This document shows positions 14,959-63,205 of a DNA stretch of 64,000 nucleotides, piece after piece. Position numbers and translations under genes: made by a program. Origin of the DNA: Schmidtea nova (lineage: Eukaryota); the NCBI GenBank assembly GCA_044892505.1, contig CM097882.1, forward strand, positions 289,912,001 through 289,976,000. Direction: 5' to 3'. Below the pieces are notes generated by a model. It was not told the DNA's origin and did no database searches. It saw only the letters and a list, made by a program, of their open reading frames with translations. The first letter of the stretch is position 1, and each line of letters opens with the position of its first letter.

Positions 14959-15205
14959 AAAACTAGATGTGAAGGTGCCAGGAATTGTGATAAAATTAAT
15001 AAATAGCTGTACTAAGAACTCTTGTGTTTAATCTAGAGAGAATGATGCCAGGAGTGATGTTGATTATGAATGGGTGACTGTGTGATAAAGAGTAAAATGG
15101 AGTAAAGTGTCGTGAATACTAATGACATAACATTTGAGGGTAGAGGGGGGACATAAGACCGTAGATGAACCATAATACGATTGATCTTCGTTTCCTCCTT
15201 TTTAG

Positions 15206-29246: not shown

Positions 29247-30955
29247 CAGTGAAACCTCGCTTAACGAGCACCTCTTATAACGAGAAATTCGCATAACGAG
29301 TAAAATAAATTGTAAAAAAACGACTCGCTTAACGAACGATTTTTCGCATAACGAGTGAAAGTCCTGGATTGTAAAAAAAATTAACGTAAACAAAAATTTA
29401 AAAACAAAAATATTTGCAGCATTCTTGTTATCATTATTTATGGATACATCAGTATGTGTTTACAATTGTTCCGCTAGCATCTTTTGCTTGTGATATAAAT
29501 TTTTACAAACCTGTGTTAATACAATGTTTTTTGTGATTTTTTTAGTATAAAGTTTATTAATTATTTGTGATTTTTATTGTAAAATTAATAAACCTTGCAA
29601 AATGTTGCCGAAAAAAAGTCGCAAGAAGACAGTCATAAGAGAATAAAAATAATCATAGAAACGAAGCATAAAATCATTGAAAATCGAGAACGGGGTGTGA
29701 GTGTAGCGGATCTTTCGCGCACATACGACCGGTCCACATCTACGATCTGTACTATCCTTAAAAACAAGGACAATATTATGGAGATAGATGCGTCAAAAGG
29801 AGTTACAAGAATATCTACGCAACGGTTGCGTGTTCTCGACGATGTTGAAAGGCTGCTTCTTATATGGATAAACGAGAAGCAATTACAAGGCGACACTATT
29901 AACGAGAACATCATTTGTGAGAAAGCAAAAATGATTTTCGACGACCTAGTAAAGAAGAAGCCAAGAATATCAACGGCCGAAGAAGAAGTATTTAAGGGAA
30001 GTCATGAGTGGTTCGAAAAATTTAAGAAAAGAACCGGCATCCACAGCGTTGTGAGGCATTGTGAAGCAGCAAGCTGCGACAAGAGGGCAGCAGAGAACTT
30101 CATCGGCGACTTCAAGAAGCTCATAGATTCTAATGGCTATCTGCCGCAAACAAATTTTTAATTGTGACGAGACGGGTCTTTTCTGGAAAAAGATATATTA
30201 CTTATATTACTGCAGAGGAGGATGCAATGCCCGGGCACAAGCCAATGAAAGACCGCCTCACGCTGCTTTTTTGTGCCAATGCAAGCGGCGATTTGAAAGT
30301 TAAATCGCTGCTTGTTTATCATTCTGAAACCCCACGAGCATTCAAAAAGTGTAAATTCCAAAAAAACAGGCTAAATGTGATGTGGAGGTCAAACAAAAAG
30401 GCGTGGGTGACAAGTAACCTTTTTACTGATTGGCTCAATAATGTGTTTGGTCCTTCTGTGAAAAAATATTTACTTCATATGAATCTGCCGTTACATTTCT
30501 TGCTTGTTATGGATAACGCAGTAGCTATGCGCGCTACAAATTTATTTAATGATAATGCTGTATTGCCTTTTCATCAAATTTTGAAGCGTCGCCAAAAACA
30601 AACGTCACTAGACAGCTTTTTAGTAAAAAAAAATTAGTTATGTATCATTACAACAAACTTATTATTTCGAATACTTTTTAATTTTTGTAAAATGAATTTG
30701 TATTACAGGTTGGTTTATTTCGCGACAGAAGGAAAGATCAAGATGATTTACCATCTTTAACAACATGATCATGTATATAATTTTCATTCAATAAATGTAT
30801 ATGTACATAAAATTTTTTGAGTATTTTTTTCGGTACGGAACGAATTATCGTATTTTTCATTAATTTATATGGGAAGCGTTGTTTCGCTTAACGAGTGTTT
30901 CGCTTTACGAGGAACATTCTGGAACGAATTATGCTCGTTATGCGAGGTTCCACTG
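29247..30955 (+). mobile_element. pogo/Tigger DNA transposon, internally deleted
   Basis: TIRs CAGTGAAACCTCGCTTAACGAGCA / TGCTCGTTATGCGAGGTTCCACTG with TA on both sides. Confidence 0.93.
29595..30637 (+). pseudogene. Tigger/CENP-B-like transposase (frameshifted; DDE domain truncated)
   Basis: HTH_psq/CENP-B HTH, FKGSHEWFEKFKKR, NCDETG across a frameshift, KDRLTLLFCANASGD, LLVMDNA. Confidence 0.92.
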
Positions 30956-32469: not shown

Positions 32470-35400
32470 CTGCTTTTCTTTCATAATCCATCGATACAAA
32501 CAAATATTTTTTCTTTAATTAAATTGAATATCTAAATTAAATTAATTATCACATTCCCCCGTGATCAGTACGACGAATCAAACTCGTAATGATCAAGATA
32601 GGAAGGCTTCCTTCGGTTGCCAGCCCAACGCGTGCCTTCCTTACTCATTTCTGGACTTCTGATGTCAACCTGATTGTCTTCAAATTCGCATTCGACATTG
32701 CTGGATTTGATAGGTTGATTTGGCACCACTCGGATGTCTGCTACATGACGCGGTACTTCGTCAAGCTCTATGTTGGTAGGTGAATTTATGCCAGTGATGA
32801 TTCTACTGGGCCACTGAGCAGTGCATTTGGCCGGAACTGGCTTTATAACAACCTTCTGACCAGTTTTACATTTACCTGGTCTAGATATTACGCGCTTCTC
32901 CTCGACACCTCTGTGAAATTTCCATTGTTACTTAAATAGACACTATGATGGAGCTATACTCTGATTCTTCGCGTCTTTGGGTGCCATGTTATACCAATAA
33001 ACAATGTCCCGTGGGTCTGGACGACTCCTGGCTGCATAGGATTTTATTGTCCGGTGGTTTCTCTCCACGATCCCATTCCCAGATGGACGGTAGGCACACC
33101 TGTATGTCGGCTTTACCTCCCATCTACAACATAAATCTTATAAAGATTTAGAATGAAAACTAGGCCCATTGTCCATGAGTAGCTCACGAGGTGGACCTCT
33201 CTCTCGAAACACTTCTTCGAGAATTTTTACAATATTTTGTGCAACTTCATATGGTATCCTTCTCCAAATGGCAAATCTGCTAGGCCCACAATCAACGATA
33301 GTCAAGAAAATGGATCCCACGTAGTGCGTTACATATACACCTAGTCTTTCCCAATTTTTATCGACCCCTAATGATCCATTTTCCCACTTAACTGGCGATG
33401 GATCGATAGATTTTCATTCAATACAATTTCTTACCACATTCTTTATGACGTCTCGTGGGGTGTCTGGGTTTTCTAACTGAATGAAATAAATAGATTTTTC
33501 CAGACCAAAATGGTGTTTGCTGTGACGGTTCTTTATTTGTTCTGACGATAAGCCCACGCAGGCAAAAGACTCTCTAGACTTCAACCACCTCTTTGGAACG
33601 CGTGTCAGTATATCTGCTCGGTTTTCAGCTGATTTCACCAATTGTACCCAAATAAGAATTCTGTCATTTTCGATAATCTCTTTTATTATTCCCAACCGAC
33701 GTCTAATCAGAGTCTCTGAAATTCCATGAACACTAATCCTACATACATTGTTAAGAACTGTTCTCAGCCAGCCTACTACCGTCGCCGAATCCACCATCAG
33801 CTTGATTTTTTAACGCCCCATTTGATTGCTAAGTTTACGCCTTTAAGAACTGCATCGAGCTCAGCGATGTTTATATGTGAATGATCATCACTTTCCCTGA
33901 GCCAAGTTGAATCCTCCACGACGTGGCCATTTATCACTAATACGACACCCAGCGCTAAACTGCTAGCATCACACCATAAAGTACATTGATCCCTAGTGTT
34001 TACAGTCCAGGTTCCTTTGACTGGATCGTCCAGTTCAATGAGACTCATCACTTTAATCAATCTCGATTCGCACTCTGCTCAGACGAGATCATCCCAATTT
34101 GTACCATCCGCAATTCTCTTGATAACTGCAAGCCACTCTGAGCCACCCCGCGACCGGATAACGCCCAATAAGCTTTCCACAAATAGAAAATAATTTACGC
34201 CGAGTAACTTTACCTTCAATTGGGTCAACTGGATTTCCTCTTGACCATAACAGGTTACCGTGACGATTGCGTTCAATTTTTAAACCAAGAACCTTTGTAT
34301 CCACTAACAGTTCCGCTGGCTTCGTTACTAATCCATATTGAGCCAAATGTTTCACAACTTCATCGATACTGACCATACTCGTGTTACCAGCTATGTCATC
34401 AATGTAGTGATCTGTCGCGTTCAGGATTCGCGAATCGAGGCTCAGCACCTTTCTCAACACCAAGGACATTATCTTTGGAGCACAACTAAGACTAAATCAT
34501 AGTCTTGTAAGAGAATACGTCTTCTTTTTGTAGCGAATCCTTTGGAATTCCCAAAGATCTTTACTTACATGCAACTGTAGATAAGCATTTTTTAAATCAA
34601 GCATCGATAGCTGTTTTCACACCTATCTCCATCGTTTTAGACTCTCCCCACAAACATCACTATCGCCAGTGTGACTCTTCACAGATTCATTGAGTTCCCT
34701 AAAGTCAATAACGGGTCGAACTTTTCCTTTGTTTTCTTGTACTGCAGCTAGAAGAGGAAGAATTCCGCAACCGGTTTTTTCAGCGGGGATTAGCCAGCCT
34801 TCCATTATCCATCGCTCCACTTCAGCTTCATATTCTTGTCGCACTCCAGGCTTAATTGCGTATTCGGCAACGTTGTTCCGCAATATAGGGGGTTTGTCTT
34901 TCCATTTCCAGGATATTGTCCACTTGTCTCCTTCAAAACTTGCAGCGAAATCCTCGTCATCAATTTTCACTTGTTCTTGAACTAAAGCCGGCATGGATAT
35001 TCTAGTGCATTCACCAAACTGTACGCCATAATTGTCAATTGAGACTCCCCCAAGGCGTTCAATCGTATCGAAACCTAAAATAACATCCACTCCGGCTACA
35101 AGATTCGTCTTTATTAAGCAATTTAACCAAAAACTTGTTCCTCGAACACCGACTTTCGCCTTCACAGTGGACTCTTCTACCATCTACTGCAACAACAACT
35201 CTGGCTTCACCACTTCCTTCTGCACAGATACGGGAAACAATGGTTTGCGAGCATCCATAATCAACTAGTCCAGTGCACGATTTTCCATTCACTCTGAGTC
35301 TGACAAGTACTCGCGCCATCCCTGACATCACTGAGAAACCGCTGGCGCTCCAGTTTCTCTTCTGGCGTTTCCCTGTGTGTTTGAAGAGCATTGTCTCGAC

Positions 35401-35570
35401 AAATGCCCTTTGATTCCACATGTCCAACACTCTTGAGAGGGGCATTTATTTTTGAAATGTCCGGATTTTTCACATCCGTAGCAAGGTTTGACTTCTTTAC
35501 CTGGCGCAGAATCACTTCCTTTCACTGCAATTAGACCAGTGCAGCCGTTTTGTTCTGATATTAGAAGGTT
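32470..35570 (-). mobile_element. Decayed, 5'-truncated Ty3/Gypsy retrotransposon (gag knuckles, PR, RT, RH, IN, PPT, start of 3' LTR)
   Basis: Two CCHC knuckles (35328-35525), protease LVD(Y)GCSQT, RT RPVIDFRELN and YIDDI, RNase H WCDAS...NIAELDA, integrase LLMDNGPSF. GGGGAA|TGT at about 32553. Many frameshifts. Confidence 0.92.
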
Positions 35571-41010: not shown

Positions 41011-41937
41011 TTATGATGCCCAAGCTTCAAGATCCGCCAACTCGTCTTCTTCTTTCCGATCTAACAAGTGAAAAATATTAATGATGAAAATGCAATTATT
41101 TTTTCTCTTCAATACTTTTCTTTTCACGCGTAAGTTCATGTTGAGGTGCACTGGGTAACCCAATTATGGGATCTGTATTAGCTGTACGTCCAGAAACATC
41201 CAATAAAGCACTTTCCAAGTCTTCCTCTTGTAACGATTCCAGTTCTCTCAACAGTTCATCCTCGTCATAATCATGTCCGAATCCAACTGGATTCGACACA
41301 GCATCGGCGATTTCTTTCGCTAATTCTTGTTGTTCTTGAATCTCATCCATTACATCGTGAACTTTGTCAACATCCCTATTTTTCAGTAGAATTATTATTA
41401 TTTATTTATTTATATTTATATGCACAATTCAATATAATTAATATTTAATTAAATTAAATAATTTCAATTAATTTCTAATATTATTTGTAATAAGTTTAAC
41501 AAATGTAAACAATGCGATACTTACATGTTCTGATGAGCGGATTTCAGTGATTGAGATGCGACTTGCATAGCTTTCAATACTTCTGTATTCGTACTAGCAT
41601 TTTCTAAAGCCTCGACTTGAAATTCTACTGTTGTAAGTGTGCCATCTATTTGAGTTAATTGTTTTTCATAGCGTTTTTTACGAGCCAATGCTTGTAGAGC
41701 AGCTACAAAATGAATTTTAAAATATTAATAATAAAATAACTATTTATATAAATCAATACCTCGTTTATTTTTAGTTCCATGTTTTTTAGCTGTAGTTAAT
41801 TCTTGTTCGATTTTTTTTTCTAAAAAGTCTTGCTTTTTCAAAAGCATATCTTGAATTCCTTTCAATTTTTGAATAGCATCTTGAGGTGATTCACCAGTTT
41901 CCTTTTTCTTACGTCCAAAAAAAGCTCCTAAACTCAT
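41011..41937 (-). CDS. CHMP4: Charged multivesicular body protein 4 / Snf7 / Shrub (ESCRT-III), 221 aa; exons 41760-41937, 41525-41702, 41116-41375, 41011-41060
   Basis: GT-AG introns of 57, 149 and 55 bp join in frame (666 nt). Motifs: AIQKLK...MLLKKQDFLEKKIEQEL...KNKRAALQALARKKRYEKQLTQIDGTL, DVDKVHDVMDEI, DEDELLRELESL, C-terminal ELADLEAWAS. Confidence 0.96.
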
Positions 41938-42299: not shown

Positions 42300-42560
42300 G
42301 TTATAACCATTATTGTGGTGGGTTGTTGACCGTCAATATGACCTTGACGTTTCTATGGCTCTCATCAACAACTCAACACATAAAACATTGAAACTACCAC
42401 CTTGTTACCCGTCACTATGTAACGTTGGTACTGTAACAAGTGGGTGGGTATTCGCAATCAGTGAGCGTCGTCAATACGAAACTATGATTGACCGAATATC
42501 TCCTGGGTCCAAGGGCTACCGATAGAAGGTTTAATGCCCGTTTTTGTCCCCTTAAATTAA
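42300..42560. repeat. Dispersed repeat, copy 1 (copy 2 at about 46605-46860); probably a retroelement non-coding segment
   Basis: GGTGGGTTGTTGA.CGTCAATATGACCTTGACGTT...GCTACCGATAGAAGGTTTAATGCCC is shared by both copies. Confidence 0.8.
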
Positions 42561-45900: not shown

Positions 45901-47969
45901 AAATTGAAGTTCGAATGAAATGGTACAACTCGATTCAACGCAAATTAATAATAAAAAAAAATTTTCCACAAATTCTGAATTCTGCCATTTTGATGGCGGT
46001 ATATATACCCTCAATTTTTCGCTATCTTCAGTAGTGCAATAAAACAAATTGTTCTAGAATTTTCTCTTAATTTTTTCTAAATTAATTCTAATGATTTTCC
46101 GAAAATTAATTCCATATTTTTGTATAATAATTTTTTATAAACTATAAATAATTTATTTTAATTCAAAATTTTTATGTTTGAATCGAAATTTGTTCGATTT
46201 GATTTAATTTATGATATTTCGATCCATATCAATTCTCTCTACTGTTAAATGTGAAATTTTGTGATAAATTCACAATTTTCTTCTAAAATTTTGTTAATTT
46301 TTCTGTACTGAAGATTTTATGACAAAATTCTGTTCTTTATAGGCATTTTCAATGGGTTTTCCGCCTATTCTAACTTACAAACGTTCTGCTTTTAATTTTT
46401 TCTCAAGATTTCGGTGAAAACCTTACAAATTCGCAGTTAGCGCGTACTCTACCGGTTGATGTGTTTTGATTCCACTTCACCTTTTGATGCTTTCCACTTA
46501 ATTGTTGGATTTTTTATGGATGCTAGGGTTAAAAATGGAATCTTGCGCGTTCTCTACCTATGGGATTATCGCTTTATTAAAACAAATTGCGTTTTGGCCC
46601 AACACTTGTGTTGTTGGTGGGTTGTTGATCGTCAATATGACCTTGACGTTGTTATGGCTCCCATCAACAACTCAACAAACAAAACATTAGTTTAACCATC
46701 TTGTTGCCCGTCACAATGTAACGTTGTTAATGCAAAAAAATGGGTGGGTATTCGCAATCAGCGAGGGTCGAAAAATTCGAAACTATGATTGACTGAACAT
46801 CTCCTGGGTTCAAGTGCTACCGATAGAAGGTTTAATGCCCATTTTGTCCCTTCTTTAACCATTTATCTAGAACATTTAATAAAATGTTATCGGCAATTCA
46901 ACATAAATATTTTACATCAATATAAATTTATTATTACATTCAAACAAATCATTCCTAGCATCAAAAACACTAGAATAACATTAAAGTTTTCGAATATTGC
47001 AAGTTATGATAATTAGAAAAAGGAAAAAAAAACTCAATCCGTATTTAAAATCTTTAACGAAAAACTTTAATTAGAAACGTTACTTTAAAATTAAATTTTA
47101 TTTTATAATTTACCATTTTATTATTAAATTAGAAAGGCTAAATTCACCAACACAAATCTCAGATAACAATCGCAATTCAAATAATATACCAGAGGTAAGC
47201 TAAGAATATCGAATTATTTTATTTAATAATCATACTTTAAGGCCAGATGAATCACGATAGATGATGCAGTCATCAAACGCGGAACCAGCTATGGATCATC
47301 AAGAGAAACGTTAAACTGCTCAGAAATCCAATCACACACCAAATACGACTGTCAATTCGGACCAACGGTTAATATTATTATTTAATAATCATCATTTATC
47401 CGATAACGTTCAATTTCAGAAAACTTTGAAGAGGAAAGACATCGGAATCCGGCTTTGCAAAACTCACAAGCAAGACATTGTTGGAGATGTCTATATTAAT
47501 GTTATTGGTCATTTGTGGCTTCAAATTATTCAGTCATTTGTGGTTTTAAATTTTTTAATAAAGGTTTCTAATGCATTTTTTATTTTATTGTATGAATGAG
47601 AGTCTGTTGCAGTTTGAGAAATTTTGGAATTTTAACAATTGATTCTCTTTTCAATGATATTAATAAATAAAAATTTCTTGTGGTATTTTTATTTTCTTTT
47701 TATAATAGTGAAATTATAAGGTTTATTATTGAGTTGTGAGTAGAATGATTGAAAATGACTGGAGATATGCGTACTTTTATTATTAATTCAAAGCATCCCG
47801 GTATGGTTAAAGGTCGGATGTTGATAGATGAATTTCTTTACGTATGAGAGTTGTTGAATGATATTTTGAGTAAAAATGTCTGGATGCATTGTGCTGTAAG
47901 GGGGTATGGATATATGAGTTTTTATGTGTGACATGAGATGTGGATGTAGATTGTTGATTGCAAGTTTGT

Positions 47970-49088
47970 GTGTATGTACACTATTGCTGTTGGTGTGTTT
48001 ACTAATTTTAGTCTTTCTGTTGTCTCTCTATGCTGGAATGTTCTTGTTCTCTTGAGCTGTTCCATTTCTTGTTTGGTGGTTGAATCATATTTGGGCTCGT
48101 CATAAACTTTTCCTAGTATTTCCTCGAATTCAGCTTCTTGTTATAGCATAATTCGACATTTATTCACATCTGCCTTATAGATCAATGATGATGCACCGGT
48201 ATTATATGATCTATGTTGTACAGAACAGCTTGGAAAATTTCTCATTGATAACGTATCTGGATCAAAATATCCCGCATATGTCTCTAATTTCACTTGATAC
48301 ATTTCTATTACTACTACATTGCTGACCACTTTTCCCAATATATTGTATGCTCCTCCTTTACAACTTCCGTTTGGTTTATTGACGTATCCTGCTGCAAATA
48401 CTCTTGTTATTTTAATTGCTCCTGGTTGGACAGCTATTATTATGTTTCCTGCTAAAGTTATCCGTTTTGAGGTAAACGCTTCATTGCACTATTCGCTATC
48501 CAGTGATATTACCGTTGATTCCATTCCTGGTTCAATAATTGATGAGTACGAATATTGTCCACAGTAATACGCAAATAATTTTCTCGTAACCGCGCATTCC
48601 CTTATTTCAGCTTTGATGAGGTCTGATTCATGATACACGTTGTAACCTATTTTATTCACAACTTGTTCCAATTTTTTCGGTGTGGCTTGTTTGTAATCTT
48701 CCGTGTGTTTTAATGAATATTTCTCGCTAAGTTCGATTTTGTCGTAATCGTATACTACAAACGCTGTTGCTCCTTTTATGCACATCATCCAAATCAGTAC
48801 TGTGGTCAATATTGCATGCATACTCTTCCCATATGCTCTTTGATCACGAAAGTTCATTGATTCTTCGAATTCTGTTAATAATTCTCTCAAATTTACTTGC
48901 ATGGTTTCGGTTTGATCTATTTTATCTACTGAGTTGATGAATGTTTTCCAACCTCCTTGTTTCATTACATACGGCTCTATCAGTTTTTCAATGATTTCCG
49001 TTATCGTAAATATATGACCATTTGGACTGAGTAGTATATACAGAGTTAGATATCCCGCAGATTTTGAAACCCTATGCCAGCAAAACAT
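47970..49088 (-). pseudogene. Fragment of a polyprotein: Bcl-2-like BH1/BH2 segment, signal peptide and chuvirus-like envelope glycoprotein N-terminus (in-frame stops at 48489 and 48141)
   Basis: CWHRV ... YVMKQGGWKTFI; hydrophobic AILTTVLIWMMCIKGATA; then FVVYD(C>Y)...YSL...D(C>Y)...ECAV...YYCGQYSYSS...C...GSCKG. Confidence 0.65.
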
Positions 49089-49249
49089 TTAACTAATTCA
49101 CTAATGCGGGACGGATTCGCCCACAACCGTTCATTTCGCTCATGTTTTATAAGCGGGCATGGGTTTTCAAAATCTCCAGGATATCCAACTCCATATATAC
49201 TACTATGATTTTTACTTGCCCGCAAAACATAATTAAAATTTTATTCTTA

Positions 49250-52200
49250 AAAATGGCTGCAAAACCGATTCCTAAAAAAGGAGTTCCTTGCAATGGAAAA
49301 AATTTCAAGATGAAAATAACGATTACAAGATGAACTTAGACGTGTAAAAGATGAAAACAAACAACTATTGCAAATAAAATCAATGACAAAAGAATTAATA
49401 ATCAAAACACAAGATAAAAGAGAAGAAATAGTAAATAAAAAATCAAATCCACGGGCAGAGAAAACAAACAATCCAAATCCTATTAATGTAATAAGATATC
49501 ATGATATAGATTTTTCACAAGTCCTTGATGATGTTGAGAAAAAAATTCAACAAGGATATGCGGTAGGTATTTTTGGTGTGTGTTGAAACACAGTAAATAA
49601 ATATCACACCGAATCAATAGATTTAAATTTATCAACCATGACGCAATTACAAGGTAATAGAGAATCTTTTAATGATAAATCAGACATGGAGGAATTCATC
49701 TTTACTGGAGTAAAAAGTTTTGTCAAAGATATATTTGAAAGACTAAAAAGAAGTGATTTTGGGAAAGGGGTTGATTTTAAGGGAGAATATTGGGCACGAT
49801 TGACTTATATAAAAGTGGTGGAAAAATATGTAAGTCAAATGAAAAATATGTAAGTGGTGGAAAAATATGTAAGTTTAAAAAATTAAATTTAAAAAATACT
49901 AAAACATTTTTTAAACTCTTGCAAAATGTATTAATGTTAAAAATTATAAAATTAAATGTGTTCGAAAAAAATGTAACTTGTAATCAATGCAATAATCAGA
50001 TGTCATTCATATCTGTCAATTCATTGGTTGATAAATTTTCATTTCAATGTCCTGAGTGTAAGTCGAGACATTCTATCCGCAAAGGATCGACATTCTATAA
50101 TGCGAAACTTTCAATTCAAGAAGTGTTGGCGGCTCTCATAGGATTTGTAAGTAATGAGCCTATTAAAAAACTTGCAGAAACACTCCACATATCGAAAAGG
50201 TGCCTCGTAAAGTGGTATTCAATATTCCGTAATTGTATCACCATGCACCTTGAAAGTAGTTTCCAACAACTTCGTGGAATGGATGAAGTAGTTGAAATTG
50301 ATCAATCTGTCATTGGAAGACGAAAGTATAATGTTGGAAGATCAAGGGACCAACAATGGTTATTTGGATGTATTGAAAGATCAACCTCTAAAATATTAAT
50401 TAAATGTGTTGATAGCAGAACTAAGAGAATTAGATGCTTTAATCAAAGATGTTATCTCTGATAATACATTAGTGATGTCTGATGAATGGCCTGCTTATAT
50501 GAGCTTCTTTTCAGAAAATAACTGTAATTATTCCCATTTAGCTGTTAAACACAAAGAAAACTTTGTGGATCCCAATTCAAGTGCTCATACGCAGAACATT
50601 GAGTGCGTTTGGAGAAGACTAAAATACATGCTCCGTGCAAAAAATTATGTTCGACGATCAAAACTTTCATAATATGTTGATGAATTCTGTTTCCGAGAAA
50701 AGTTTAAGTTCTTTGAATATCATGATTATTTATGTTTATTGAAATAGTTAAATTGTTGAAATGCTCTAAAAAAATGTTTTTGTATTTTTTAAATTTAATG
50801 TTTTTTAATTTAATGTTTATTGAAATAGTTAAATTGTTGTTAAATTTAATGTTTTTCAATGGACTTACATGTTTTTCATTGGACTTACTTATTTTTCAAC
50901 CACTTACATATTTTTCATTTGACTTACATATTTTTCCACCACTTACATATAAGTCAATCGTGCCGAATAATTTTCCACCACTTACATATAAATCAATCGT
51001 GCCGAATATTGTTGTATTCCATCTGATGGGAATTGTTTTATAAAATGTGTTATTGAAATAATTTCTAGAGAGATGGAAAATAAAACACCAAAACAAATAG
51101 CTAAATTTTTGACACAAGATTTACATGTAGAATATTATAATTTGGATAATGATTTTATCAACAAAGATAATTGGATCATTTTGTACAAAAAAAAGAAATG
51201 ATGTTTAATTTCAAAATCAAACCAAGATTGTGGAACCCAAGAATTAAAAGTTAATTTTGAAAAACAAGATTATAGTGGCAAAGATTGTCATGTTGGAAAC
51301 ATAACATCATGTATTTCGATAATAATGTTGGAAAGATATACAAAAATATTTGTATAAAAACCAAGGGGATTATCGTTCTGGAATCATGACTTTGGCTAGA
51401 ATTCCCAACTTTTGTAAAAACCAAAATATAAATGTTTTGTATTATAGTGGAAAAGATAGACATTTGTATCCCAAAGCTAATGTTCAATCATGTAGATTCA
51501 ACATGGTTTTATACTTGTATGAAAATCATTTCTGTTTAATTGATAAATATTATAAAAAGAAGGAATAAATGAGATTAATAAAAATTATATTAAACTACAT
51601 GTTGATTATAATTCTAAAAATGTCGTACAAGTTTCAGAATTCACAACTAGTACCAAAAAAATATCTGAAGATGATACATTTGCATGGGAAGCTTCACCAG
51701 AGGAATTCAATAATTGTTTTTTTAAAAAATGGGCAGCTGGGCTGATATCTTTAAAAGATGTTAAACAAGTATTGGGTATAGATTAGAAATAAAAGACAAA
51801 ACACAACAAGAATTACAAGAAAAAACTTAAACATTACAAGAAAAAGCCAAAATATTTACAGGGTTTGATTGTATTATTCAAATGTTTAAATATATAGGAA
51901 ATATTCCAAACCAAACAAGTGCTCTATTAATTGCACACAATAGAAGTAAATTTGACAATTATTTGGTATTACAAGAACATGGAATTGTTCCATACAAAAT
52001 TTTAAAAACATCACAAGGTATAATTAATCTTCAATTTAAAAATATTTATACATCAAAAGATAATCAAGAAATAATAAAAAAGAAATTTAAAGAAAAACAT
52101 CCAAATATTAAAAATCCAAAAGGGGATAGATTTTTTCAAAAAATTACATTTAGATGTTCTCTTAATCACATTAAAAATAGTTTGGATAATATATGTAAAG

Positions 52201-53050
52201 CATTTAAACTTCCAGTAGAATTAAGCAAATCAAAATTAAAACATGATGATATAAATTTGGAAAATGATTTAGATTGTAAATTAAAATGGGAACCATATTT
52301 AAAATTAGATGTTATATCACTAGCAATAATTATTATACAATATTCGTCAACAATGGAAGATTTGGTTAAACAAAAAATGTCTTCATGCATGTTATCACCA
52401 TCATTATCATTAAAAGGTTGTGTAAAACATCATGATAAACAAGAATTAAAAAAAACAATTGATGAAGGAGAAAAAATATCAACACATGTTGATCTATATG
52501 TTCGATGGTTTATAAGAAAAACTATAAAAAATGGTCGAGTTTCTGCAAACATTAACAAATTTGAATCACCCAAATGGAAAAAAATCGAAATGATATTAAA
52601 CGAATATTTAGGTGAAACTTTTAATCAAACTATTTCACAACTATTAAAATCTTATTCCGAATCAATAGTTTATCCAGCACTAAAAATACTACAACAAGAT
52701 TCTGGTTTAGAATTATTAGAAACACACAAGACAAAAGAATATTTAAAAGATGAAGAGAAATGTATTGAAAAGATGGTTATCGTTTATCAACTAATTTTAC
52801 TAGTATTTTTGAATGGTGTGAAAAGAATCCAGAAAAAATAACCCAAAACAAGATAACAAATATATTTTTAGAATCAAGAAAAAAAATAATGATTTTAGAT
52901 TGGGAAGATCAAGATTTTTTAATGGCGTTTTTTGCAACAAGTTTATATCAGTCAGCAATGGCAGATGAAAATTCTGAATATTCAAAAGTAAAAACAGCTC
53001 GAGGTTTTAAAAAATCTAAACAAGTTGAAATATTAAATCTACTCAACACA
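49250..53050 (+). pseudogene. Polinton/Maverick (adintovirus-like) protein-primed DNA polymerase B remnant, interrupted by Merlin
   Basis: Exo II-like LIAHNRSKFDNYLVL, FRCSL, YLKLDVISL, RKTIKNGRV. CIPSDGNCFIKC is rejoined across the Merlin target duplication. Confidence 0.75.
49793..51003 (+). mobile_element. Merlin (IS1016/ISXO2-like) DNA transposon with frameshifted transposase (about 49930-50730)
   Basis: TIRs GGCACGATTGACTTATAT... with internal AAAAATATGTAAGT repeats; 8-bp target duplication GAATATTG; VVEIDQS...RRKYNVGR, SDEWPAY, HTQNIE. Confidence 0.93.
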
Positions 53051-53830
53051 CTTTATTAACATGAATTGTGATATTAACACCATTCATTGCTAGTTTTTCA
53101 TCTTGTGCACTAGTATCAAAACAAAATATTGAATACAAAATTTTAAAATCTATTAAATTTAATTGTGGATCTACTCCAAATTCATGACATACTTCAACAT
53201 AATTCTGATATATGGTTTTGCTTGATGATTGTTTTTGAAAGAAAATGTTACTGGATTAATTGGATAATAACTTGTATTTAATTGAACTCGTATACTTGTA
53301 ATTTCATTATTACCATCCTTTTGAATAAATTTTGAATAATTTTCTGTAAATGAAGGAGTCAAATCTTTAAAACCAACAATAATAAATCTAGGTCTTGAAT
53401 TCAAAACTGTTGGTTTCCATGAATATTGTGTTCCTTCAGGAATATCAATGCTTGTAGAAATTCTTTCCAAATAATTTACAATAATTGGTTTTGAAGAATT
53501 CATTCTATCTATAATATCAACTTCCAATATTGGATTACATGTTATTGAAGGAACCATTAATTTCAAATCTTCAAAAACTAATTTTGGTTTAGCTCCAGCA
53601 TTTACTCCATAAAATATTTTTTGATTATTTTGTTCTATACTCGCTCTTAATTCAAATGGAATTAGATATATTAATCTTTTGTAATTTTGAAAGAATCCAA
53701 ACAAAGTTTTTAATGGATATATTCCTTCAAAACTTGTTGAATACAATTCTTTTCTAACTAAAAATCCTGTATTTTTGGGATCACCAGCTCCAGTATCAGG
53801 AATCCAAGTATTCAAATATTGTTTGTCAAA
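53050..53830 (-). pseudogene. Polinton/adintovirus major capsid (double jelly-roll, hexon-like) protein fragment
   Basis: YPLKTLFGFFQNY, PRFIIVGF, ITSIRVQLNTSYYP and, after a frameshift, YSIFCFDTSAQDEKL; convergent with pPolB. Confidence 0.7.
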
Positions 53831-54767
53831 ATAATTTACAAAGATCCAAGGGTTTTTTGGGAATTTTTCACAACGCGTACATAAAACAACATTAGTAAAT
53901 AAAGATGCGTATCTAGGAATTTCAGAGCTAATTTACTAGAAATTAATGAATAATTCAATCACTGAATCAGTGTCCAAACTGATTCGTAATAAAGGATGTT
54001 TAAAATGATTGTTCGGATAGAATGGAATTTTAAAATCATTTATTGTTTGCTGATGCTTTGCTGAATAGTTTAGCGCATAATGATCGAGTAAAATGAATCT
54101 ACTTGTTTTCCTGAAAATTTAGGATCTTAGTGATTGAAATTTATATAAATTTCTTTTTAAAACGTTGCAAAGCGATTGTACTTGTTTCAAATTCAATTGC
54201 GAACTCGCTAAACGAAAAGTGGAGGCCGATTTTTCAAAACTTTACATCAATCTGACGCTTTGTTAGCAAGGATTATTTTGTTTTGTCTATTTGTATACTA
54301 AATGTAAATGAAGATAATGATAGAGTAATATAAATGTTTTTGCTTTTTTGCACGTTTCATAATGAACATGTTCAATACGCCAGAAATTATTATAAGCATG
54401 TCTATGTGTATGAAATATTAAATATATTATTAAGTATTTATTTGTTTATTTGATAATTTATTAATTAATAAGGGAATTACAAAGTTTTGTTTTGTTCTGA
54501 ATTCCAGTGAACTGGTATAGATTTTAACTTCAGTTTGGGACTAAAAACGGGCATTATACCTTCCGTCAGTTGCACTTGAACCCACCTGCGGCATTCGGTC
54601 AAATATAGTTTAAATTCATTCGACACTCTGTTTTGTGAATATCCACCCATTTGTTGCAGTACAAATATTACACTGTAGCGGGCAACAATGGATCGAAAGA
54701 CAATTAATCTTTCATAATTATCAATAATAATTCCCATAATGACTATAGATCAAAATTTTTTAAATAA

Positions 54768-54805: not shown

Positions 54806-55508
54806 TTACAATCGTTATATTAACTTAATCCTAAATACTAACCTTAATTATTTATTTTATATTTTATAAAGATTTAATTGGATGAAAAAAATTTATTTTA
54901 ATTTTCTTTTTAAACATGATTTTTATGTGCGAATTGAATTTTGATGGACGGTTTGTATTTTTTGATGTAAAAAGTCTCGGAAGCTTATCTTTGTAATGAA
55001 TTTTTGAATCCCTCTTGTAAAATCTGGCATTTTGTTTCTTCTATAGATGGAGTTGTTTTATGTACTTTTTCCCAGTGCTCGTAATAATTACTTGTTTTGC
55101 TTTTAGTGTGTTCATTAAGTCGGGTGTAAAAAGTTCTATGTGTTTCTCCTATGTAAGTATCGTCACATTTTTGACAAGAAAGTTTATATACTATATTTTT
55201 GGAAAAGCAAAAGCATCGGGTTGTGGAACGGCAAAGACATTTATGTTTGGAGATGTTGGAAATTGATGGCTTTCAGAGTTGTGATTTTAACGGTGCAGGG
55301 GTTATGAAAGTAGGACGGATGTGGATAGGCAAATCGGTTTGGTTAAAAATGTTTGTGATTTTATTCGCTATAGTATCATTTAAGAAAGGTAATCTTAGAT
55401 ATATTGTGTGTTAGGTATTGTTATTATGTTTCTGGTGTTTCTTATTGTTGCGTTTATTGTGGTTTGGTTTGTTAAGGAACTATTTTTTTACAAATTCTTC
55501 AGGGTATC

Positions 55509-58500
55509 TATGAGAAAGTTGGAAGATTTAAGAAATTTTTAATGAAAAATTTTAAAAATTAATTTTAAGATTGATTTTTAAAATATAAAAATATTTTTAA
55601 TTAGAAAAATATTTTTTGGAAATTTGTTTAAATAACAAATTATTAAGAAAACATTATTTTGATAATTATATTTTTCTGAAATAAAAGTTATGGATTCAAG
55701 TTGTTGTAAAACTGTTTTTAATGTTTTAAAGGATGAAAATCCTAATATGGTGGCAGCGGTAAACACTGACGCAATCACCAAAAGATTGCTACCAAAGGTG
55801 TTCTGCCAAGGTGACGACTTGAAAAAGTTTATTAAAAGATTCGAAATTTATTTCGATGCCAAGGGAATCACGCAGAAGAGAGACCACGAAAGATTAACAT
55901 CTTGCATGATTGACGAGGATCTCTTGGAAGTGTATGCCAAAACTCTGAAAAAAGCAGAAGGATTCCAGGCTAGGTTGCGATTGGCATTCGATCGCGAAAG
56001 AGATGTATTAAAGGATATGCAAAGCTTGTTGAATTACAAGCGGAAGGGTGAAGAAATAGAAGCATATTTTAAAAAGGTAGAGGACCTTGTTGATAGGTTG
56101 TTGGAAAATAAAAAATTTACCAAAGAGAAATTAACAGCAAAGATGTTGATAGTATGTGCTGACAATAAAGAAGTTGAGAAAGAAGTAATACTACGGAAGA
56201 TAAAAAGCACAGAAGAAATAAAGGAAACACTAATTCTTATGGATAAAGTGGACAAGCAAAGAGATCAGATAAACGTTATGTTAAGTTACGCTAGAGTGGT
56301 CTATCAGGATCCACATAGAAGAGTACAGTACAAGCAGAAAGAACAGAGAGAAGAAGGTATTCGAAGAGAAAGACCAGAATGCTGGTTATGCTACAAAATA
56401 GGAAAATAAAAGGTAAAATAAAGTGCTGGAGATGTCATAGAAGCGGACATATAAGTAGAAACTGTCCAGATAAAAAAGCTCCAAGATGTTTTGGTTGTGG
56501 GAAAGAAGGTCATATAAAAAGATTGTGTCAGGAAATATGTCGTGAAAGATGTGTAGAAATGGTCATAGATCTGAGGAGTGTTATACAAAAATGAGTTACG
56601 GGAGAGCGATGGAGAGACAAAGACTCACGAGAAACAGATACAGTAGGATAAATGGTATCGAGGAAAAAGAAGAAAGGGAATCGTGTGTAGAGACAAATGA
56701 AGATAATTTTAGGAAGACGTACCCAAACAACAGGGCTCCACCAGTAGAGGAGTTGGTTGGAGCCATATACTAAAAGAAAATTTGATGGGATATTCTCAAG
56801 GGGCAGAAAAGTGGGAGAATGTAGGAAGGGTAAGCGAGAAAGTACACAGGTTCCTAAAGAGAGAAATGTTTGAAGAGGAAGTGGAAAGAATTGGAACCAT
56901 TGAAACGGAGCAGGCTCTTGAAATTTTGTATAACAAAATGCAAGGAAGGCCTAGTATAACAGTAAGGATGAATGGGGAAAATTTCGACTGTTTATTAGAC
57001 ACTGGCGCAAGAATCAATGTAATGAGTGTGAACTGTTTTAACAAGTTACGAGGACAACAATTGACGATAAGTGACGATGCGCAAACGACAGTACGATCGA
57101 GACAATAGGAAAAACAAAGGTGCAAGTAACCATTGGAAATATTTCGAAGAAACTGACACCAGATGTGATTGGAGGAGTCGAATTACAAGAAACATTTGGA
57201 TTTAGACTGTTAAAAATTAAAGATATAGAGGCTAGTGAAAAAGACAAGAACTATATTTGTAACATTAAAGCAAAATTTCGCAGACAAATAAAGGATGAAG
57301 AACGATTGATACGAGCGTTGGAACAGTTAAAGATCAATGAAGATATCAAATTAAAGGAAATTATAACAAACAGTGGAAACGTGTTTATGGCAGATAAATG
57401 GGATGTGGGTCGCACACATTTGGTAAAACATAAGATAGTTACATGAGGTGAGCCGATAAAAATAAAACCATATCGCCAACCATTAAATTTGGAATCAAAG
57501 ATTGAAAAAGCAATTCAAAATTTGTACGAAAATGAGATTATACGGAAATGTAACTCTCCAGGGAACACACCGTTATTATGTGTATGGAAAAAAGAGAAAA
57601 AGGATATTAGACTATGCTTGAATTTCAGACAGCTGAACGCGGTTACAGAGAGGCAGGCATTTCCAATGCCAAACATAGAGGAGATGTTGGATTGGTTAGG
57701 AGGATCCGTCTTTTTCAGCTCAATCGATCTAGGTAATGCATATTACCAAGTGGAATTAGAAGAAGAATCACAAGAGAAAACAGCATTCTCAACAAAGAAC
57801 GGACAATACTGTTTCAACAGAATGCTGTTTGGAATTGCAGCAGCACCAGGTACGTTCCAAGAAAAGATGACAAAAGTATTAGGCAAAATAAAGGGAGTAA
57901 TGGTATATTTTGACGACATCTTGATTTATTCAAGCAGTAAAAAGAAACACTATACAATACTCGGAGAAGTGTTAAAGCTGATTGAGGAAGCAGGACTAAG
58001 GATGTGACACGTGTGTTCAGAGTCAAATGGCCCACGAAGAAGCTAAGAAAGGAAAGATAAAAACCAGATTATTAGACTCGATCAGAGAAGAAGGAAGAAG
58101 CAACGACCAACATGGAATTGTAGAAGAAGTACGAAAGAAAAGGATGATGCCTGAAAATGAGTTACAAGAAACAATAAAGGAAATACATAGACTATTGTGT
58201 CATGCTGTAGTCGAGAAGATAGCCGATTATATGAAAGATAGATATGTTAGAAAACACCTGTGGAGTCAGATTCAGGAAATTGTTCGAAGTTGTGAGATTT
58301 GTCAAAAAACCAAGGCTATAACAATAACAAAGAAAGAAAAAAGAATCAAATGAAATGTTCGAAATTATATTCGTGGATATATGTGGACCGTTGAAAGAAA
58401 CAAAAGGACGTAAGAAGTATATATTGGTATAATATACCAGTATAGTAAGTATCAAGTCTTGACAGCGATAACAAAACAAGACGAAGAAACAATAAAGAAA

Positions 58501-59319
58501 ACGATTTTAGAAAAGTGAATTTTAAGATTTGGATGCCCAAAGGAGATAAGATTTGATTGCGGAAAGGCGTTTGAATCAGGAAAGATGAGAGAATTCACAA
58601 AGATTCTAGATATTAAACTATGTTTTTCGAGTTCATACCATCCCCAAACAAACGGTCAGATAGAAAGACAATTAAGGACAATACGGGAGCTGATAAATGC
58701 TACTTTACAGGATAGAAGGAAGACGGATTGGGCAGAGATATTACCAGAAGTCGAATTCACATTAAATGCAACCAAACAAAAAACGACAGGGAAAAGCCCG
58801 GCAGAGATAGTTTTTGGAAAATAGATTATCAGGGAAAAATGGTACGGGCCCAAAGAAATACCCGTAAAGGAAGAACTAGAAGAACAAACAAGGAAAAAAT
58901 TAAATGTAGGAGAAGAAGTGTTAGTAAAATTAGAAACACGCAACAAAAGCCAGGACAGATATGAAGGTCCATACAAAGTGATCGAGAAAGTGCATGACAG
59001 ACGATACATCTTAAGAAATGAAAATGGTAAAATGATCGAAAGAAATGTGGAAAAACTTAAAAATTTCTTAAGAAAGGGGATATGAGGAAGTTGGAAGATT
59101 TAAGAAATTTTTAATGAAAAATTTTAAAAATTAATTTTAAGATTGATTTTTAAAATATAAAAATATTTTTAATTAAAAAAATATTTTTTGGAAATTTTTT
59201 TAAATAACAAATTATTAAGAAAACATTATTTTGATAATTATATTTTTCTGAAATAAAAGTTCTGGATTCAAGTTGTTGTAAAACTGATTTTAATGTTTTA
59301 AAGGATGAAAATCCTAATA
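55509..59319 (+). mobile_element. Ty3/Gypsy LTR retrotransposon with both LTRs (55509-55747, 59081-59319); internally deleted (RNase H lost) and frameshifted
   Basis: 239-bp near-identical LTRs; 5-bp target duplication GTATC; PBS TGGTGGCAGCGGT; PPT AAGAAAGGGGA; CCHC knuckles, LLDTGA, YFDDI, integrase H-H-CC, YHPQTNGQIER, GPY. Confidence 0.95.
55748..55760 (+). promoter_or_regulatory. Primer-binding site complementary to the tRNA-Leu 3' end
   Basis: TGGTGGCAGCGGT is the reverse complement of ...ACCGCTGCCA-CCA, the conserved metazoan tRNA-Leu(AAG) 3' end. Confidence 0.8.
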
Positions 59320-62148
59320 GTATCCATTTTGGAGGAATCGTATTTTGAACTTTTCTAATGTTTCTTGTATTTTGTTTGCGTCTCAACAGTTTCTTATGGC
59401 TCTTTTTCTTTCTCATATTTGTAATGCAATTTTGCGTTGAAGGTGAACGTGGCTTTTCTATCGGAGGATATGACCACTATGTAAACTTTTAGAATATAGC
59501 TCGGTGTTTTCATTTAGTGTATCTGGGCCTTTTGTGAAGCTTACCATGATATCTAAAAACGGTATTTTATCTTCTGTGTTCGGTGTTTCAAAAGTGAATT
59601 GTATGTTGGTGTTAGTAGAATTTGCGTGTGATAGGATTTGATTGAGAGGGATTGTGGAGACTATGAAGATGTCTTCGATGTATCGTTTCCAGAAAAGTAT
59701 TTTGTCACCCCAAAAAGATCTGATCGTTGATTCTATAAAGTTTATGTAGAAGATGGAAGAAAGGTTATTACTCATGGCTAATCCATGAAATTTTTTGAAT
59801 GGTTTTTCTTTAGTTATGACAATATCTGAATTTATTGCTAATTTTAGAAGTTTTTTAAAGTCATGTTTAGTTAAGTCTGCGAGGTCAGTATTGGCTTTAT
59901 GAGTTTTAAAGAAAGAAGCTGCGATGTCGAAAATATTATTCTCTCCGTGAAGAGGAATAGATCAGTAAAGATTGGAAAAATCAAGAGATCCCCAGAAGTA
60001 CTGATGTCCTTTGTTTAACGGAAGAGACGTATTTGTAATTTTAGAGACGAATTCAGTTGTGTTTTTAAGATGACAAGGAACCAAAGGCAAAACTGCTTTT
60101 AGGATTTCAGAATGAACTTTAGAAAGTGTTGTGGAAGGAGTGTCAACTGCGGATACAAGAGGTCTACTTTTTAAAGGATTTTTGTGGTCTTTAGGTAAAA
60201 TAGTCATATTACTAAGTAAGGGCTCACTACAGTTGCATTTTAAAAGTAAATCTTTGATTTTAAGGTTGATTTGTTTATTTGCAAGTGTTGACAGTTTCTT
60301 ATTGTATAAAATCTGAGTTGATGCAGGTAAGATTATTTTGTTTATCGGTTCATAGTTCGAGAGATGTTCTTCAAATAGAGTGTTGTATTGTTATGTGTCA
60401 ATATAATTATGACAATTTATCAATTTGTGATCTTGCAAACATTTATTTACATTTTTATTTTATGGTTATGGACATTTTTATTTTATGGTTGATGTTTTAG
60501 CTAAGATAGATAGATAGCTTGCTATCTATCTGAGCTTGTGTGTACTTTTTGGTAAAATTTGTTGCGCCTGTGTGCGCAGTTGTTGTTTTAAAAAAATCTT
60601 ATGTATCGCATCTGTATGCGTTTTTGTTCTTTACTGTGGGATTCTTGCGCCTGTGTGCGCGCTGTTATCGTTGGAATTAATTCTTAAATTGATTTTTTAG
60701 ATTTTGGGTGGAATTATATTCTCGTTGTTTTAACGATAGTGTTTGAAATTTTAATTTGATTTTAAGTAGTGTTTTCGGATAGGATTTCATTTCTTTTGAA
60801 CAGAAATAAAATATTTTCAAAAATTCGTTTGTCTTCTCAGCATTCTTAAATAAAAATGAATTTTAGTCCTACCAATTCATTTTTATTCGCTTCTGAATCA
60901 GGGGATGGTGATTTGAAACAGGATCTGAACGCAAAAGTTGTTTATGAAACATCTGTCAAAATTGTAACTGATTATCAGAAAGTTGTGAGAGAAACTATTA
61001 AAGAAATTGAAATATGATCATTGCAAAAAGAGGTTTGACCATAAAACATGCAATGTTCTTTTACCGACTGAAGAACAAAGTCCAGATATTGCTCAAGAAG
61101 TTCATTTAGATCGAGATTTCGAAATTATTAGAGCAGGAGAATGAGGACTTATGTTTAGTGATGTTACCAATGAAACCGCATAATGCATGCTTTTAACTGA
61201 AGTTCTAGCTCATGCTTTGAATAAGCGTTTATCCGAATGCAGAAGAAATGGAATCTTAAATCACAGGGAAATAAACTGTTGTATTATCCCATGTGATTCT
61301 AAAAGACGTCCTATGGCTGATTTGCAACTATAGCATCATGTAACTGTAGCGATTTCTCATTCTCGGACGAAATATATCGCGAACAGACACAATTAATGAT
61401 TAAACTTCATGTGATTTTGAAAGAATATTTTGATTTGAAAATATTTTATGTAAATTAATGTTTTGAAAATAATTTGCAATTTAATTTGAATTTTGGAAAA
61501 TGTTTTGATTTTTTATTCCGTGGAAGAGATAATGATAAAAAATAAACCAATTTCTATAGCAAACTACTAGTAATTATAAGACGTGAATTTATACAAGAAA
61601 TATCAAAAATTTGAAACAACTGATTATTTCATTTTGAAGCCTCTAACCACAAAAAATAATATATTTTTGATATTTTAAATAATTAAAGAAAATTAATAAA
61701 TGTAAACCTGATATTTATAGAAAATTATTTATTATGGAAAATTGATTAAAAGTTTTACTGTAACTAAAAATAAACCTCAAAATTTTTTGAAATATAGTTT
61801 CAGATTATTGATAAGTGTAGGAATACTAAAAGCAAATTAGATTTTATTAATAGAAATTGATCGCTAATTGATAAGTCGGTTTTTCGCAACCGGAAATCTT
61901 GACCGATGATAACAAGAGTTGAAATGAGCAAACTCCATGACAGTCCGTATTGATTTTTTTTTTTTACAAATTTTATTTCAAAAAACTTCTGCTCCGAGGA
62001 GACAGGCTAACGAGTCCCACCCCGGCGGGCAGAGACTTTTAATCCAGCGCAATTTATCATTTTCTAAAACTTCTAGCCAGTGTCTGGTTTAGGGACATTT
62101 GATCGTATGATCGGGAGGAGGAGTAGATGGTAGCATTTGGAGTTGTAT

Positions 62149-62545
62149 TCATTCGGTGTGGCAATCATTTGGTGTGGCAGTCATTCGGTGTGGCAGTCTT
62201 TCGGTGTGGCAGTCTTTCGGTGTGGCAGGAGTAGATGGTAACATTTGGTGTTGTATTCATTCGGTGTGGCAATCATTCGGTGTGGAAGTCGTTGTGGCAG
62301 TCATTTGGTGAAACAGTCATTCGGTGTGGCATTCATTCGGTGTGGCAGTCATTCAGTATGGCAGTTATTAGGTGTGGCAGTCATTCGGTGTTGAAGTCAT
62401 TCTGTTTGGCAGTCATTCTGTTTGGCAGTCATTCTGTTTGGCAGTCATTCTGTGTGGCAGTCATTCTGTTTGGCAATCATTAGGAGTGGCAATCATTAGG
62501 AGTGGCAATCATTAGGAGTGGCAATCATTCGGTGTGGAAGTCACT
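62149..62545. repeat. 15-bp minisatellite array 1 (CAGTCATTCGGTGTG-type unit)
   Basis: More than 20 degenerate tandem units. Confidence 0.95.
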
Positions 62546-62789
62546 GTGGTAGTGATTAGGTCTGGTAGTCATTAGGTCTAAAGAAGTTGATTTAGTATTA
62601 AATTTTGTAATCGATCTGGTATTATATTTGTGATTATAATTGATATTTGAAGGGTCAATAGAAATTGAGGTGGTGTTAGGAACTAAGTAGTTGTCTTTTT
62701 TGTATTCATTATTGTCATAAGTGTTGGGATCGTTATCTGAGTAGTTGATACTGTTATCATCCGAGGAGGGGTGGTAGATATTTTGTGTA

Positions 62790-63205
62790 TCAGATATTCG
62801 GTGTGGCAAGCATTTGGTGTGGCAAGTATTCGGTGTGGCAAGTATTCGGTGTGACAAGCATTCGGTGTGGCAAGCATTCGGTGTGGCAGATATTTGGTGT
62901 AGCAGATATTTGGTGTAGCAGATATTCGGTGTGGCAAGCATTCAGTGTGGCAAGCATTCGGTGTGGCAAGCATTTGGTGTGGCAAGCATTCGGAGTGGCA
63001 AGCATTTGGTGTGGCAAGCATTCGGAGTGGCAAGTATTCGGTGTGGCAAGTATTCGGTGTGACAAGTATTCGGTGGGTGGCAAGCATTCGGCGTGGCAGA
63101 TATTTGGTGTAGCAGATATTCGGTGTGGCAAGCATTAAGTGTGGCAAGCATTCGGTGTGGCAAGCATTCGGTATGGCAAGCATTCGGGGTGGCATGCATT
63201 CAGTG
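62790..63205. repeat. 15-bp minisatellite array 2 (AAGCATTCGGTGTGG-type unit)
   Basis: About 27 tandem units, which generate the repetitive ORFs in the ORF track. Confidence 0.95.

Follow-up and report, generated by a model that had tools for sequence, protein, structure and literature searches.

The locus examined here raises the question of whether a captured Bcl-2-like domain was joined to a viral-type envelope glycoprotein (env) in a planarian mobile element, and in which kind of element this occurred. A sequence-only reading of the window (the whole 64-kb stretch of Schmidtea nova DNA that was analysed) had proposed that a Bcl-2-like BH1/BH2 domain is fused in frame to a chuvirus-type glycoprotein, as the remnant of an enveloped retroelement. 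Our results indicate that the locus very probably derives from a Burro-like Ty3/gypsy GAG-ENV-POL retrotransposon, of which it is a dead internal piece about 1.04 kb long. As dead DNA, its value is that of a pointer to a family-level question: do planarian-type retrotransposons use captured Bcl-2 to control host cell death?

Layout and decay of the fragment

The window has a G+C content of 31% and is crowded with mobile-element debris. On its minus strand, a single frame running from 49088 to 47923 comprises 388 codons with two stops read as X (the read-through, P0001), and a Bcl-2-like remnant, a linker, a signal-like stretch and env occupy 49016–47979, with the Bcl-2-like helix 6 and BH2 in frame with env. 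The stop-free part of this frame, 199 aa long, starts with an ATG at 49088 and ends before the first stop. The features are as follows.

49030..49204, no strand: imperfect inverted repeat of 175 nt with ends AGTAGT...ACTACT, in the place expected for the remainder of the Bcl-2-like domain
48933..49016, minus: Bcl-2-like remnant (C-terminal quarter; helix 6 and BH2), P0001 residues 25–52
48822..48932, minus: hydrophilic linker, residues 53–89
48762..48821, minus: internal signal-like hydrophobic stretch ending A-x-A, residues 90–109
47979..48761, minus: class III (gB/chuvirus-type) env ectodomain as assigned by PF24664, env profile and model, N-terminal ~40%, pseudogenised and truncated
48489..48491, minus: in-frame stop at residue 200 of the P0001 frame
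48141..48143, minus: in-frame stop at residue 316 of the P0001 frame

The motifs named in the sequence-only reading all lie in this one minus-strand frame, for which no strand had been given: CWHRV at 49068–49082, the BH2-like stretch at 48936–48971, the hydrophobic stretch at 48762–48821, and the cysteine-patterned glycoprotein. The stated spacing of 43 aa from tryptophan to tryptophan was also correct. Residues 90–109 form the sole region of P0001 with a 15-residue Kyte-Doolittle mean above 1.6; they align with the start of PF24664, and residues 90–103 were modelled as a helix in the AlphaFold read-through model. This hydrophobic stretch begins 45 residues past the GGW of BH2 (27–59 across the sequences compared), and GGW is separated from mature env by 68 aa, compared with 52–82 aa in seven relative sequences.

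Identification of the glycoprotein as chuvirus-type was borne out by Pfam family PF24664 (Monjiviricetes fusion glycoprotein), which matched residues 90–199 above its cut-off (E 7.8e-8); the first position of the profile falls on Met90, and the next stop-free segment was matched as well (E 2.6e-5). A profile of env from 10 relatives spans 47979–48812 (E 3e-64) and aligns over positions 6–274 of 694; the match stops there, indicating that about 60% of env, including the C-terminal membrane span, is missing. The AlphaFold model of the read-through, based on 49 sequences in the alignment, had a mean pLDDT of 78.5. When this model was compared with known structures by VIA-align, the best nine rows were all class III fusogens (gB, thogotovirus GP, rhabdovirus G and GP64), with HSV-1 gB as the best match at a moderate Z of 7.5 (179 aligned, rmsd 6.1). 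Foldseek gave class III proteins throughout among the matches listed, the best being GP64 (E 2.3e-4), and a PDB sequence search with the whole read-through returned no matches. A Z of 7.5 alone would be moderate evidence, but VIA-align, Foldseek and Pfam agree, and we therefore consider the env part, as modelled, to have a class III (gB/chuvirus-type) fusogen fold.

Ten alignment columns are majority Cys in 15 relatives. The window copy covers nine of these, with Cys at six and Tyr at three (residues 115, 132 and 295). Two of the replaced cysteines had previously been recognized as TAC codons, and the third conserved position proved to be Tyr as well. The two stops, the loss of three of nine conserved cysteines and the truncated env indicate that the window copy is dead; it also has no flanking LTR pair. 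The suggested check for upstream gag-pol and flanking LTRs gave nothing near the fragment in the window. Pfam, repeat and six-frame profile searches of the 64 kb revealed no gag, pol or LTR of the env element, so that the element class rests on relatives, and a six-frame search of the window found nothing adjoining the fragment that corresponds to the missing Bcl-2 front, the rest of env, gag or pol. Rfam likewise gave no matches in the 64-kb window.

Pol matches elsewhere in the window were rejected as parts of the env element, as they belong to two separate gypsy elements that lack env. One is a compact LTR element at 55509–59319 with 239-nt LTRs that are 98% identical and an internal region of ~3.3 kb with stops; it is inserted in a Penelope-like element (GIY-YIG at 54985–55272, RT-like ORFs at 59458–60390), and related Penelope-like pieces occur at 5566–6872. 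The other, at 32565–35522 on the minus strand, is decayed and retains protease, RT-like, DUF7047 and integrase pieces. The window also contains a Tc1-type transposase (1643–2449), a pogo/Tigger-type transposase (29592–30637), a stretch at 700–1026 that we take from its resemblance to be a probable hAT-type fragment (no Pfam match), and tandem arrays at 62110–63205 (16-nt units), 26078–26885 (170-nt) and 23552–24162 (28/141-nt). Probable host exons encode a GOLD domain (11397–11717, PF13897, E 3e-23) and a Snf7/ESCRT-III protein (41096–41401, PF03357, E 2e-15). Two plus-strand ORFs of 188 and 185 aa at 14392–15763, with a G+C content of 42–44%, had no Pfam match at E<0.08 and are preceded by a perfect 65-nt tandem duplication (14294–14425).

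The Bcl-2-like part and its relatives

A full HMMER scan of 1.84 billion representative proteins yielded 91 relatives at E<=0.001. The best of these relatives are polyproteins of Ty3/gypsy type in which gag and pol flank env. Protease, RT or integrase domains are present in 10 of the 29 relatives scanned, nine of which have env ahead of the protease; a Gag zinc knuckle precedes env in three. Many of the weaker matches are stand-alone glycoproteins of ~650–700 aa, and these, as well as BEL/Pao-like matches (e.g. P0035), score far below the gypsy-type matches. P0003 has the order Gag-X-Bcl2-Env, with Env cut short, and P0011 the order Bcl2-Env-protease; no single relative contains Gag, Bcl-2, Env and Pol together, and the domain order is shown by two overlapping relatives.

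Of the relatives, 24 include the N-terminus of env together with 60 or more residues upstream of it, and a Bcl-2-like module was found in six of these 24 (P0003, P0008, P0011, P0018, P0032 and P0059). Each of the six was recovered in leave-one-out tests (E 4e-11 to 5e-21), and they fall into six clusters at less than 50% identity. The module is missing from the other 18, the best of which is P0010 (E 0.008). In its shared form, the module ends in GGW, 52–82 residues ahead of mature env. Pfam PF00452 matched all six segments at E<=0.1 (best 2.2e-5), with the scores shown, 19–23.6 bits, lying under the 31.4 cut-off. A profile of the six segments, built without the window, matched Bcl-xL/Bcl-2 with E 2e-5 to 1.4e-4 over 66 positions spanning helix 4, BH1, helix 5, helix 6 and BH2. 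The segments were first chosen by the GGW motif, and the Bcl-xL/Bcl-2 match extends 60 positions beyond it. An AlphaFold model of P0003 620–757 (pLDDT 81) has six helices, and in a comparison with 48,161 chains, Bcl-2-fold proteins filled rows 1–35, with the first unrelated row at Z 5.4. The best structural match was canarypox CNP058 (Z 13.5, 130 of 138 residues aligned, rmsd 3.2). Foldseek pointed to the same kind of protein for the Bcl-2 model, with E-values of only 4e-3 (PDB), 7e-3 (BFVD) or weaker, and the ESM Atlas contained no usable match to P0003 620–757. These results indicate that the module in the relatives is, as modelled, a complete Bcl-2 fold and not a motif alone. BH1 is degenerate in the relatives, with the basic residue kept in five of five and the preceding Gly in none of five, which weakens the case for canonical BH3 binding.

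Two further homolog searches with word indexing added nothing new: among 1,440 candidates of 213–679 aa, none matched the read-through, and a search of longer proteins with the Bcl-2 alignment (8,000 scored) found only three, all already aligned. A tree of env from the window and the 45 of 90 relatives that covered at least 150 query positions placed the window without support, and did not group the Bcl-2 bearers (4 changes compared to a shuffled mean of 4.3). P0006, in the sister group of the Bcl-2-bearing P0008 (tree support 93/71), has just before its env signal, at ~845–860, a stretch resembling a worn BH2; at a profile E of 1.7 this is no detection, and it may be a record of domain loss. 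Other domains also occur before env, including a C-type lectin in P0056 and a chromodomain in P0057. Segments that look ubiquitin-like by eye precede env in P0002, P0010 and P0018, with no Pfam match at E<=0.01. In P0018 this segment stands before the Bcl-2 module. All three are reminiscent of Burro's SUMO-like domain.

When the whole window was scanned in six frames, the six-relative profile (window excluded) matched residues 25–52 with E 1.2e-5, the next best match having E 0.7. This upholds the BH2 proposed for the window copy. The match covers only positions 124–151 of 155, and the same segment scored E 2.1e-8 among 25 upstream segments. Residues 21–52 had a mean BLOSUM62 score of +1.42 against five relatives, which score 1.27 among themselves. 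A phmmer search of the PDB returned Bcl-xL in 52 of 53 matches, all covering residues 34–52, but with E only 0.66–1.8. PF00452 did not match window residues 1–54 or 1–199. A structure search with the 388-aa window model gave no Bcl-2 match for its first residues, which is uninformative because the copy keeps no more than part of the fold. Matches of P0038 and P0054 to residues 9–68 in phmmer are ankyrin-repeat proteins and were rejected as chance. The window alone is weak evidence, and the relatives settle the identity of the Bcl-2 part. Judged by these profiles, it is real, with only its C-terminal quarter kept and the front three-quarters missing; the window copy thus does not hold a complete Bcl-2 fold with BH1.

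The motif CWHRV, previously taken for BH1, did not withstand this comparison. Its codons lie in the left arm of the 175-nt inverted repeat, which supplies codons 1–20 of the frame, and residues 1–20 had a mean BLOSUM62 score of −1.4 against the five relatives (0.02 among the relatives themselves). The motif is also mis-spaced: by hand count, its Arg lies 39 positions before GGW, whereas the BH1 basic residue stands at 45–48 in the five relatives and at 47 in Bcl-xL. The sister arm of the repeat reads SGHGF at the matching codons. Across the 127,996 codons of the window, W-x-R-[VI] turns up 13 times. Of the fusion as originally proposed, then, the in-frame join between helix 6/BH2 and env stands, while a two-motif BH1/BH2 domain in the window copy does not, and the correct family was reached through one true motif and one chance motif. 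The wider proposal, that the fragment is a remnant of an env-bearing LTR retrotransposon with a Bcl-2-fold module joined to a class III fusogen, is supported through the relatives.

The adjoining Polinton and other readings of the locus

The inverted repeat at 49030–49204 matches itself at 71% identity over 180 columns and has a DNA fold of −38.5 kcal/mol (z −7.0), with none of 200 shuffles as stable. No second copy of the unit was found in the window, and no clear target duplication flanks it; it may be a hairpin-type Polinton end or a MITE. The AGTAGT at 49030 is presumably a Polinton end, which it resembles, and our search found no support in the literature for AGTAGT in this role. Immediately to the right lie the following features.

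49253..53059, plus: fragmented protein-primed DNA polymerase B (pPolB) of Polinton/Maverick type; PF03175 E 1.1e-6 at 51831–52838
49793..51003, plus: Merlin/IS1595-type DNA transposon inside the Polinton piece; PF12762 E 2.4e-7, terminal inverted repeats
53052..53929, minus: Polinton double-jelly-roll major capsid, frameshifted, first 100 of 410 residues missing; PF21738 E 9.3e-11, tblastn

We interpret 49253–53929 as a decayed Polinton that is not part of the retroelement, with pPolB (plus) and capsid (minus) convergent. The capsid has five relatives at 48–70% identity, with 67–70% to two database proteins of 410 aa. The upstream pPolB pieces, from 49253, have no Pfam support; we assume from their resemblance that they are Polinton pPolB N-termini, and they were assigned to the same gene by position. 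The Merlin-type transposon is flanked by an 8-bp direct repeat (49785–49792 and 51004–51011), representing its target duplication; its inverted ends are rich in tandem repeats and its transposase has one frameshift. No true TIR pair was found around the Polinton block in the window, and the right end of the Polinton is lost. A dispersed repeat of ~235 nt occurs at 27374–27606, 42316–42550, 46615–46850 and 54537–54688, in both orientations and with 69–86% identity. Polintons are piRNA targets in Schmidtea, according to the available portion of PMC8532177, and are described as expanded in Dugesia in the text accessible to us.

Another reading would make Bcl-2/env a cargo gene of the adjoining Polinton that arose independently of, and in parallel with, the nematode Maverick fusogen MFUS-1, the inverted repeat then serving as a divergent promoter. 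The env piece does lie head-to-head with pPolB and near the capsid gene, a lancelet adintovirus Bcl2 is listed in BFVD, and nematode Mavericks carry the gB-like fusogen MFUS-1 (10.1101/2022.07.12.499685, as partly available). A ~150-nt repeat is also inverted at 46701–46850 and 54537–54688, around both pieces; however, this pair was rejected as Polinton TIRs. Four copies of the repeat are scattered over the window, and the one at 46.6 kb resembles that at 42.3 kb (86%) more than that at 54.5 kb (74%). The lack of a true TIR pair around the block also weakens the cargo reading. If AGTAGT at 49030 is a Polinton end, as we presume, it would place env outside the Polinton. The G+C content differs between the env piece (35.5%) and the Polinton piece (25%), and the best relatives are retroelement polyproteins. 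Furthermore, the break falls in the middle of the Bcl-2 fold, and yet what is left of the domain matches the relatives as well as they match each other, in keeping with a copy that stayed in a retroelement until it died. We consider cargo status very unlikely. The glycoprotein was at first thought to be a Maverick fusogen, an idea that was dropped once the relatives proved to be retroelement polyproteins. A variant, which we regard as very doubtful, is that the Bcl-2/env cassette of a GAG-ENV-POL retrotransposon was captured by a flatworm Polinton, in which it came to lie head-to-head with the polymerase; if true, Polintons would have acquired a class III fusogen independently for a second time, in a host other than a nematode.

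Two further readings were considered. The BH2-like sequence could be unrelated to an endogenous chuvirus-like glycoprotein gene or BEL/Pao env that starts at Met90, which is where PF24664 position 1 falls; the stand-alone form of many weaker matches and the non-significant PDB matches of residues 1–56 are in keeping with this. Such a chance juxtaposition is most unlikely, and is largely refuted by the scan of the window, in which the six-relative profile finds the spot at residues 25–52 and no other, and by six independent 50%-identity clusters in which this module recurs with the same spacing from env. The low scores of the stand-alone and BEL/Pao-like matches relative to the gypsy-type matches also argue against it. 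A host-domesticated or spliced gene using the 199-codon frame, with the inverted-repeat ATG, BH2, signal and env N-terminus, would account for the fact that this stop-free frame opens with an ATG. However, the start lies in a repeat arm, the first two conserved cysteines are lost, and the decay is like that of the neighbouring mobile-element debris, making this reading barely credible.

Proposed mechanism and comparison with known systems

For the Burro-like retrotransposon that we favour, the intact order would be, in one frame, Gag, accessory domains, full Bcl-2, linker, internal signal, class III env with its C-terminal span, protease and the rest of Pol. By standard polyprotein topology, when env is preceded by an internal signal and followed by a stop-transfer span, env comes to lie in the ER lumen, and Gag, the Bcl-2 domain and Pol in the cytosol. 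From this order we infer that Gag and the Bcl-2 domain would be made in the cytosol, that the internal signal would direct Env into the ER lumen, and that the C-terminal span of Env would bring the chain back to the cytosol for Pol. The env signal is a topologically plausible candidate for the Bcl-2 anchor: after signal-peptidase cleavage, the signal could stay on the upstream product, oriented as a Bcl-2 tail anchor, a prospect we judge to be evenly balanced. In Bcl-xL, the anchor stretch begins ~25 aa after GGW, and the 27–59 aa seen here is looser than the spacing in cellular Bcl-2, which counts against an anchor. The protease of the element could cut the linker.

The Bcl-2 domain may most likely have a viral-type pro-survival role, keeping the producing cell alive. 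With the BH1 basic residue kept in all five relatives and the Gly in none, this putative role is plausible, with chances no better than even. Several poxviral proteins with a Bcl-2 fold act on innate signalling, and the main alternative would be a non-apoptotic role like that of the N1/A52-type proteins. In the window copy, the inverted-repeat unit would have broken the element within its Bcl-2 domain at ~49030; this unit is most likely the left end of the adjoining Polinton or a small Polinton derivative. A second truncation would have followed at ~47970. If the domain is pro-survival, a retroelement would encode a vBcl-2 in an animal that relies on cell turnover to regenerate. The available text of PMC8532177 describes BURRO1 as abundant, piRNA-repressed and enriched in the intestine, which makes the pro-survival idea testable.

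Comparison with viral Bcl-2 proteins (canarypox CNP058, EBV BHRF1, KSHV Bcl-2, ASFV A179L) and cellular Bcl-xL, Bfl-1 and Mcl-1 indicates that P0003 shares the complete fold as modelled (Z 11.5–13.5), with the BH2 GGW invariant and the BH1 basic residue kept in the relatives. The differences are a sequence identity of 8–16%, loss of the BH1 Trp and Gly, membership of a polyprotein, and an env signal as the sole candidate anchor; the window copy keeps only helix 6 and BH2. MFUS-1 is likewise a class III gB-like fusogen in a mobile element but is encoded by a gene of its own and carries a signal peptide at its N-terminus. Mosquito BEL/Pao elements with a chuvirus-like env (Dezordi 2020, as cited in the available part of PMC13524379) also have a class III fusogen in a mobile element, a likeness drawn from description.

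A further parallel is found in the GAG-ENV-POL errantiviruses with HSV/gB-type ENV that PMC13524379 reports, in the portion available, from Platyhelminthes, Nematoda and Bryozoa. A class III env is common to both, and env lies between gag and pol there. The closest one listed, Smed_errantivirus_6 (cysteine class C1a), is ~52% identical to the window env (92 of 178, hand count), compared to 30–37% for database matches of comparable length; this identity points to a triclad flatworm as the likely host. The term 'Bcl' has no occurrences in the main text and seven supplements of that source, insofar as it was available. In the literature searched (subscription papers lay outside the search), the BCL2-Env link was found only in PMC6431247 (Arkhipova and Yushenova 2019), and no structural or functional test of it was found. 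Our analysis adds the complete Bcl-2 fold as modelled, its patchy spread over at least six clusters that share less than 50% identity, in one of which only a short region separates Gag from Env, and the putative anchor model.

The pointer to planarian giant LTR elements in the sequence-only reading was well placed, as Burro carries BCL2-Env-PR. In the available text of PMC6431247, which cites Jurka 2007 and Grohme 2018, Burro/GYPSM1 are giant gypsy-like LTR retrotransposons of Dugesiidae, 25–30 kb with LTRs, having one ORF of ~4,900–5,100 aa with Gag, MATH/BIR/ankyrin/SUMO-like domains, PR, dUTPase, RT, RH and IN, and a BCL2-like motif followed by an in-frame env that matches mononegavirus glycoproteins, before the protease. 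The same text notes that Dugesia japonica contains pieces of Burro in decay, interrupted by stops and frameshifts. The fragment in the window differs in that only ~1 kb is left, and none of the Gag, MATH/BIR/ankyrin/SUMO-like, PR, dUTPase, RT, RH and IN domains flank it; it is itself cut at both ends. In P0003, Bcl-2 lies ~620 aa and env ~790 aa after the Gag start, compared to a Burro ORF1 of 4,873 aa, which suggests a Gag-to-Env region much shorter than that of Burro. In the window, as in Burro by description, a BCL2-like remnant stands directly upstream of, and in frame with, a mononegavirus-type Env. The Bcl-2-env arrangement has thus already been published for planarian Burro elements, and the fragment in the window is a further member.
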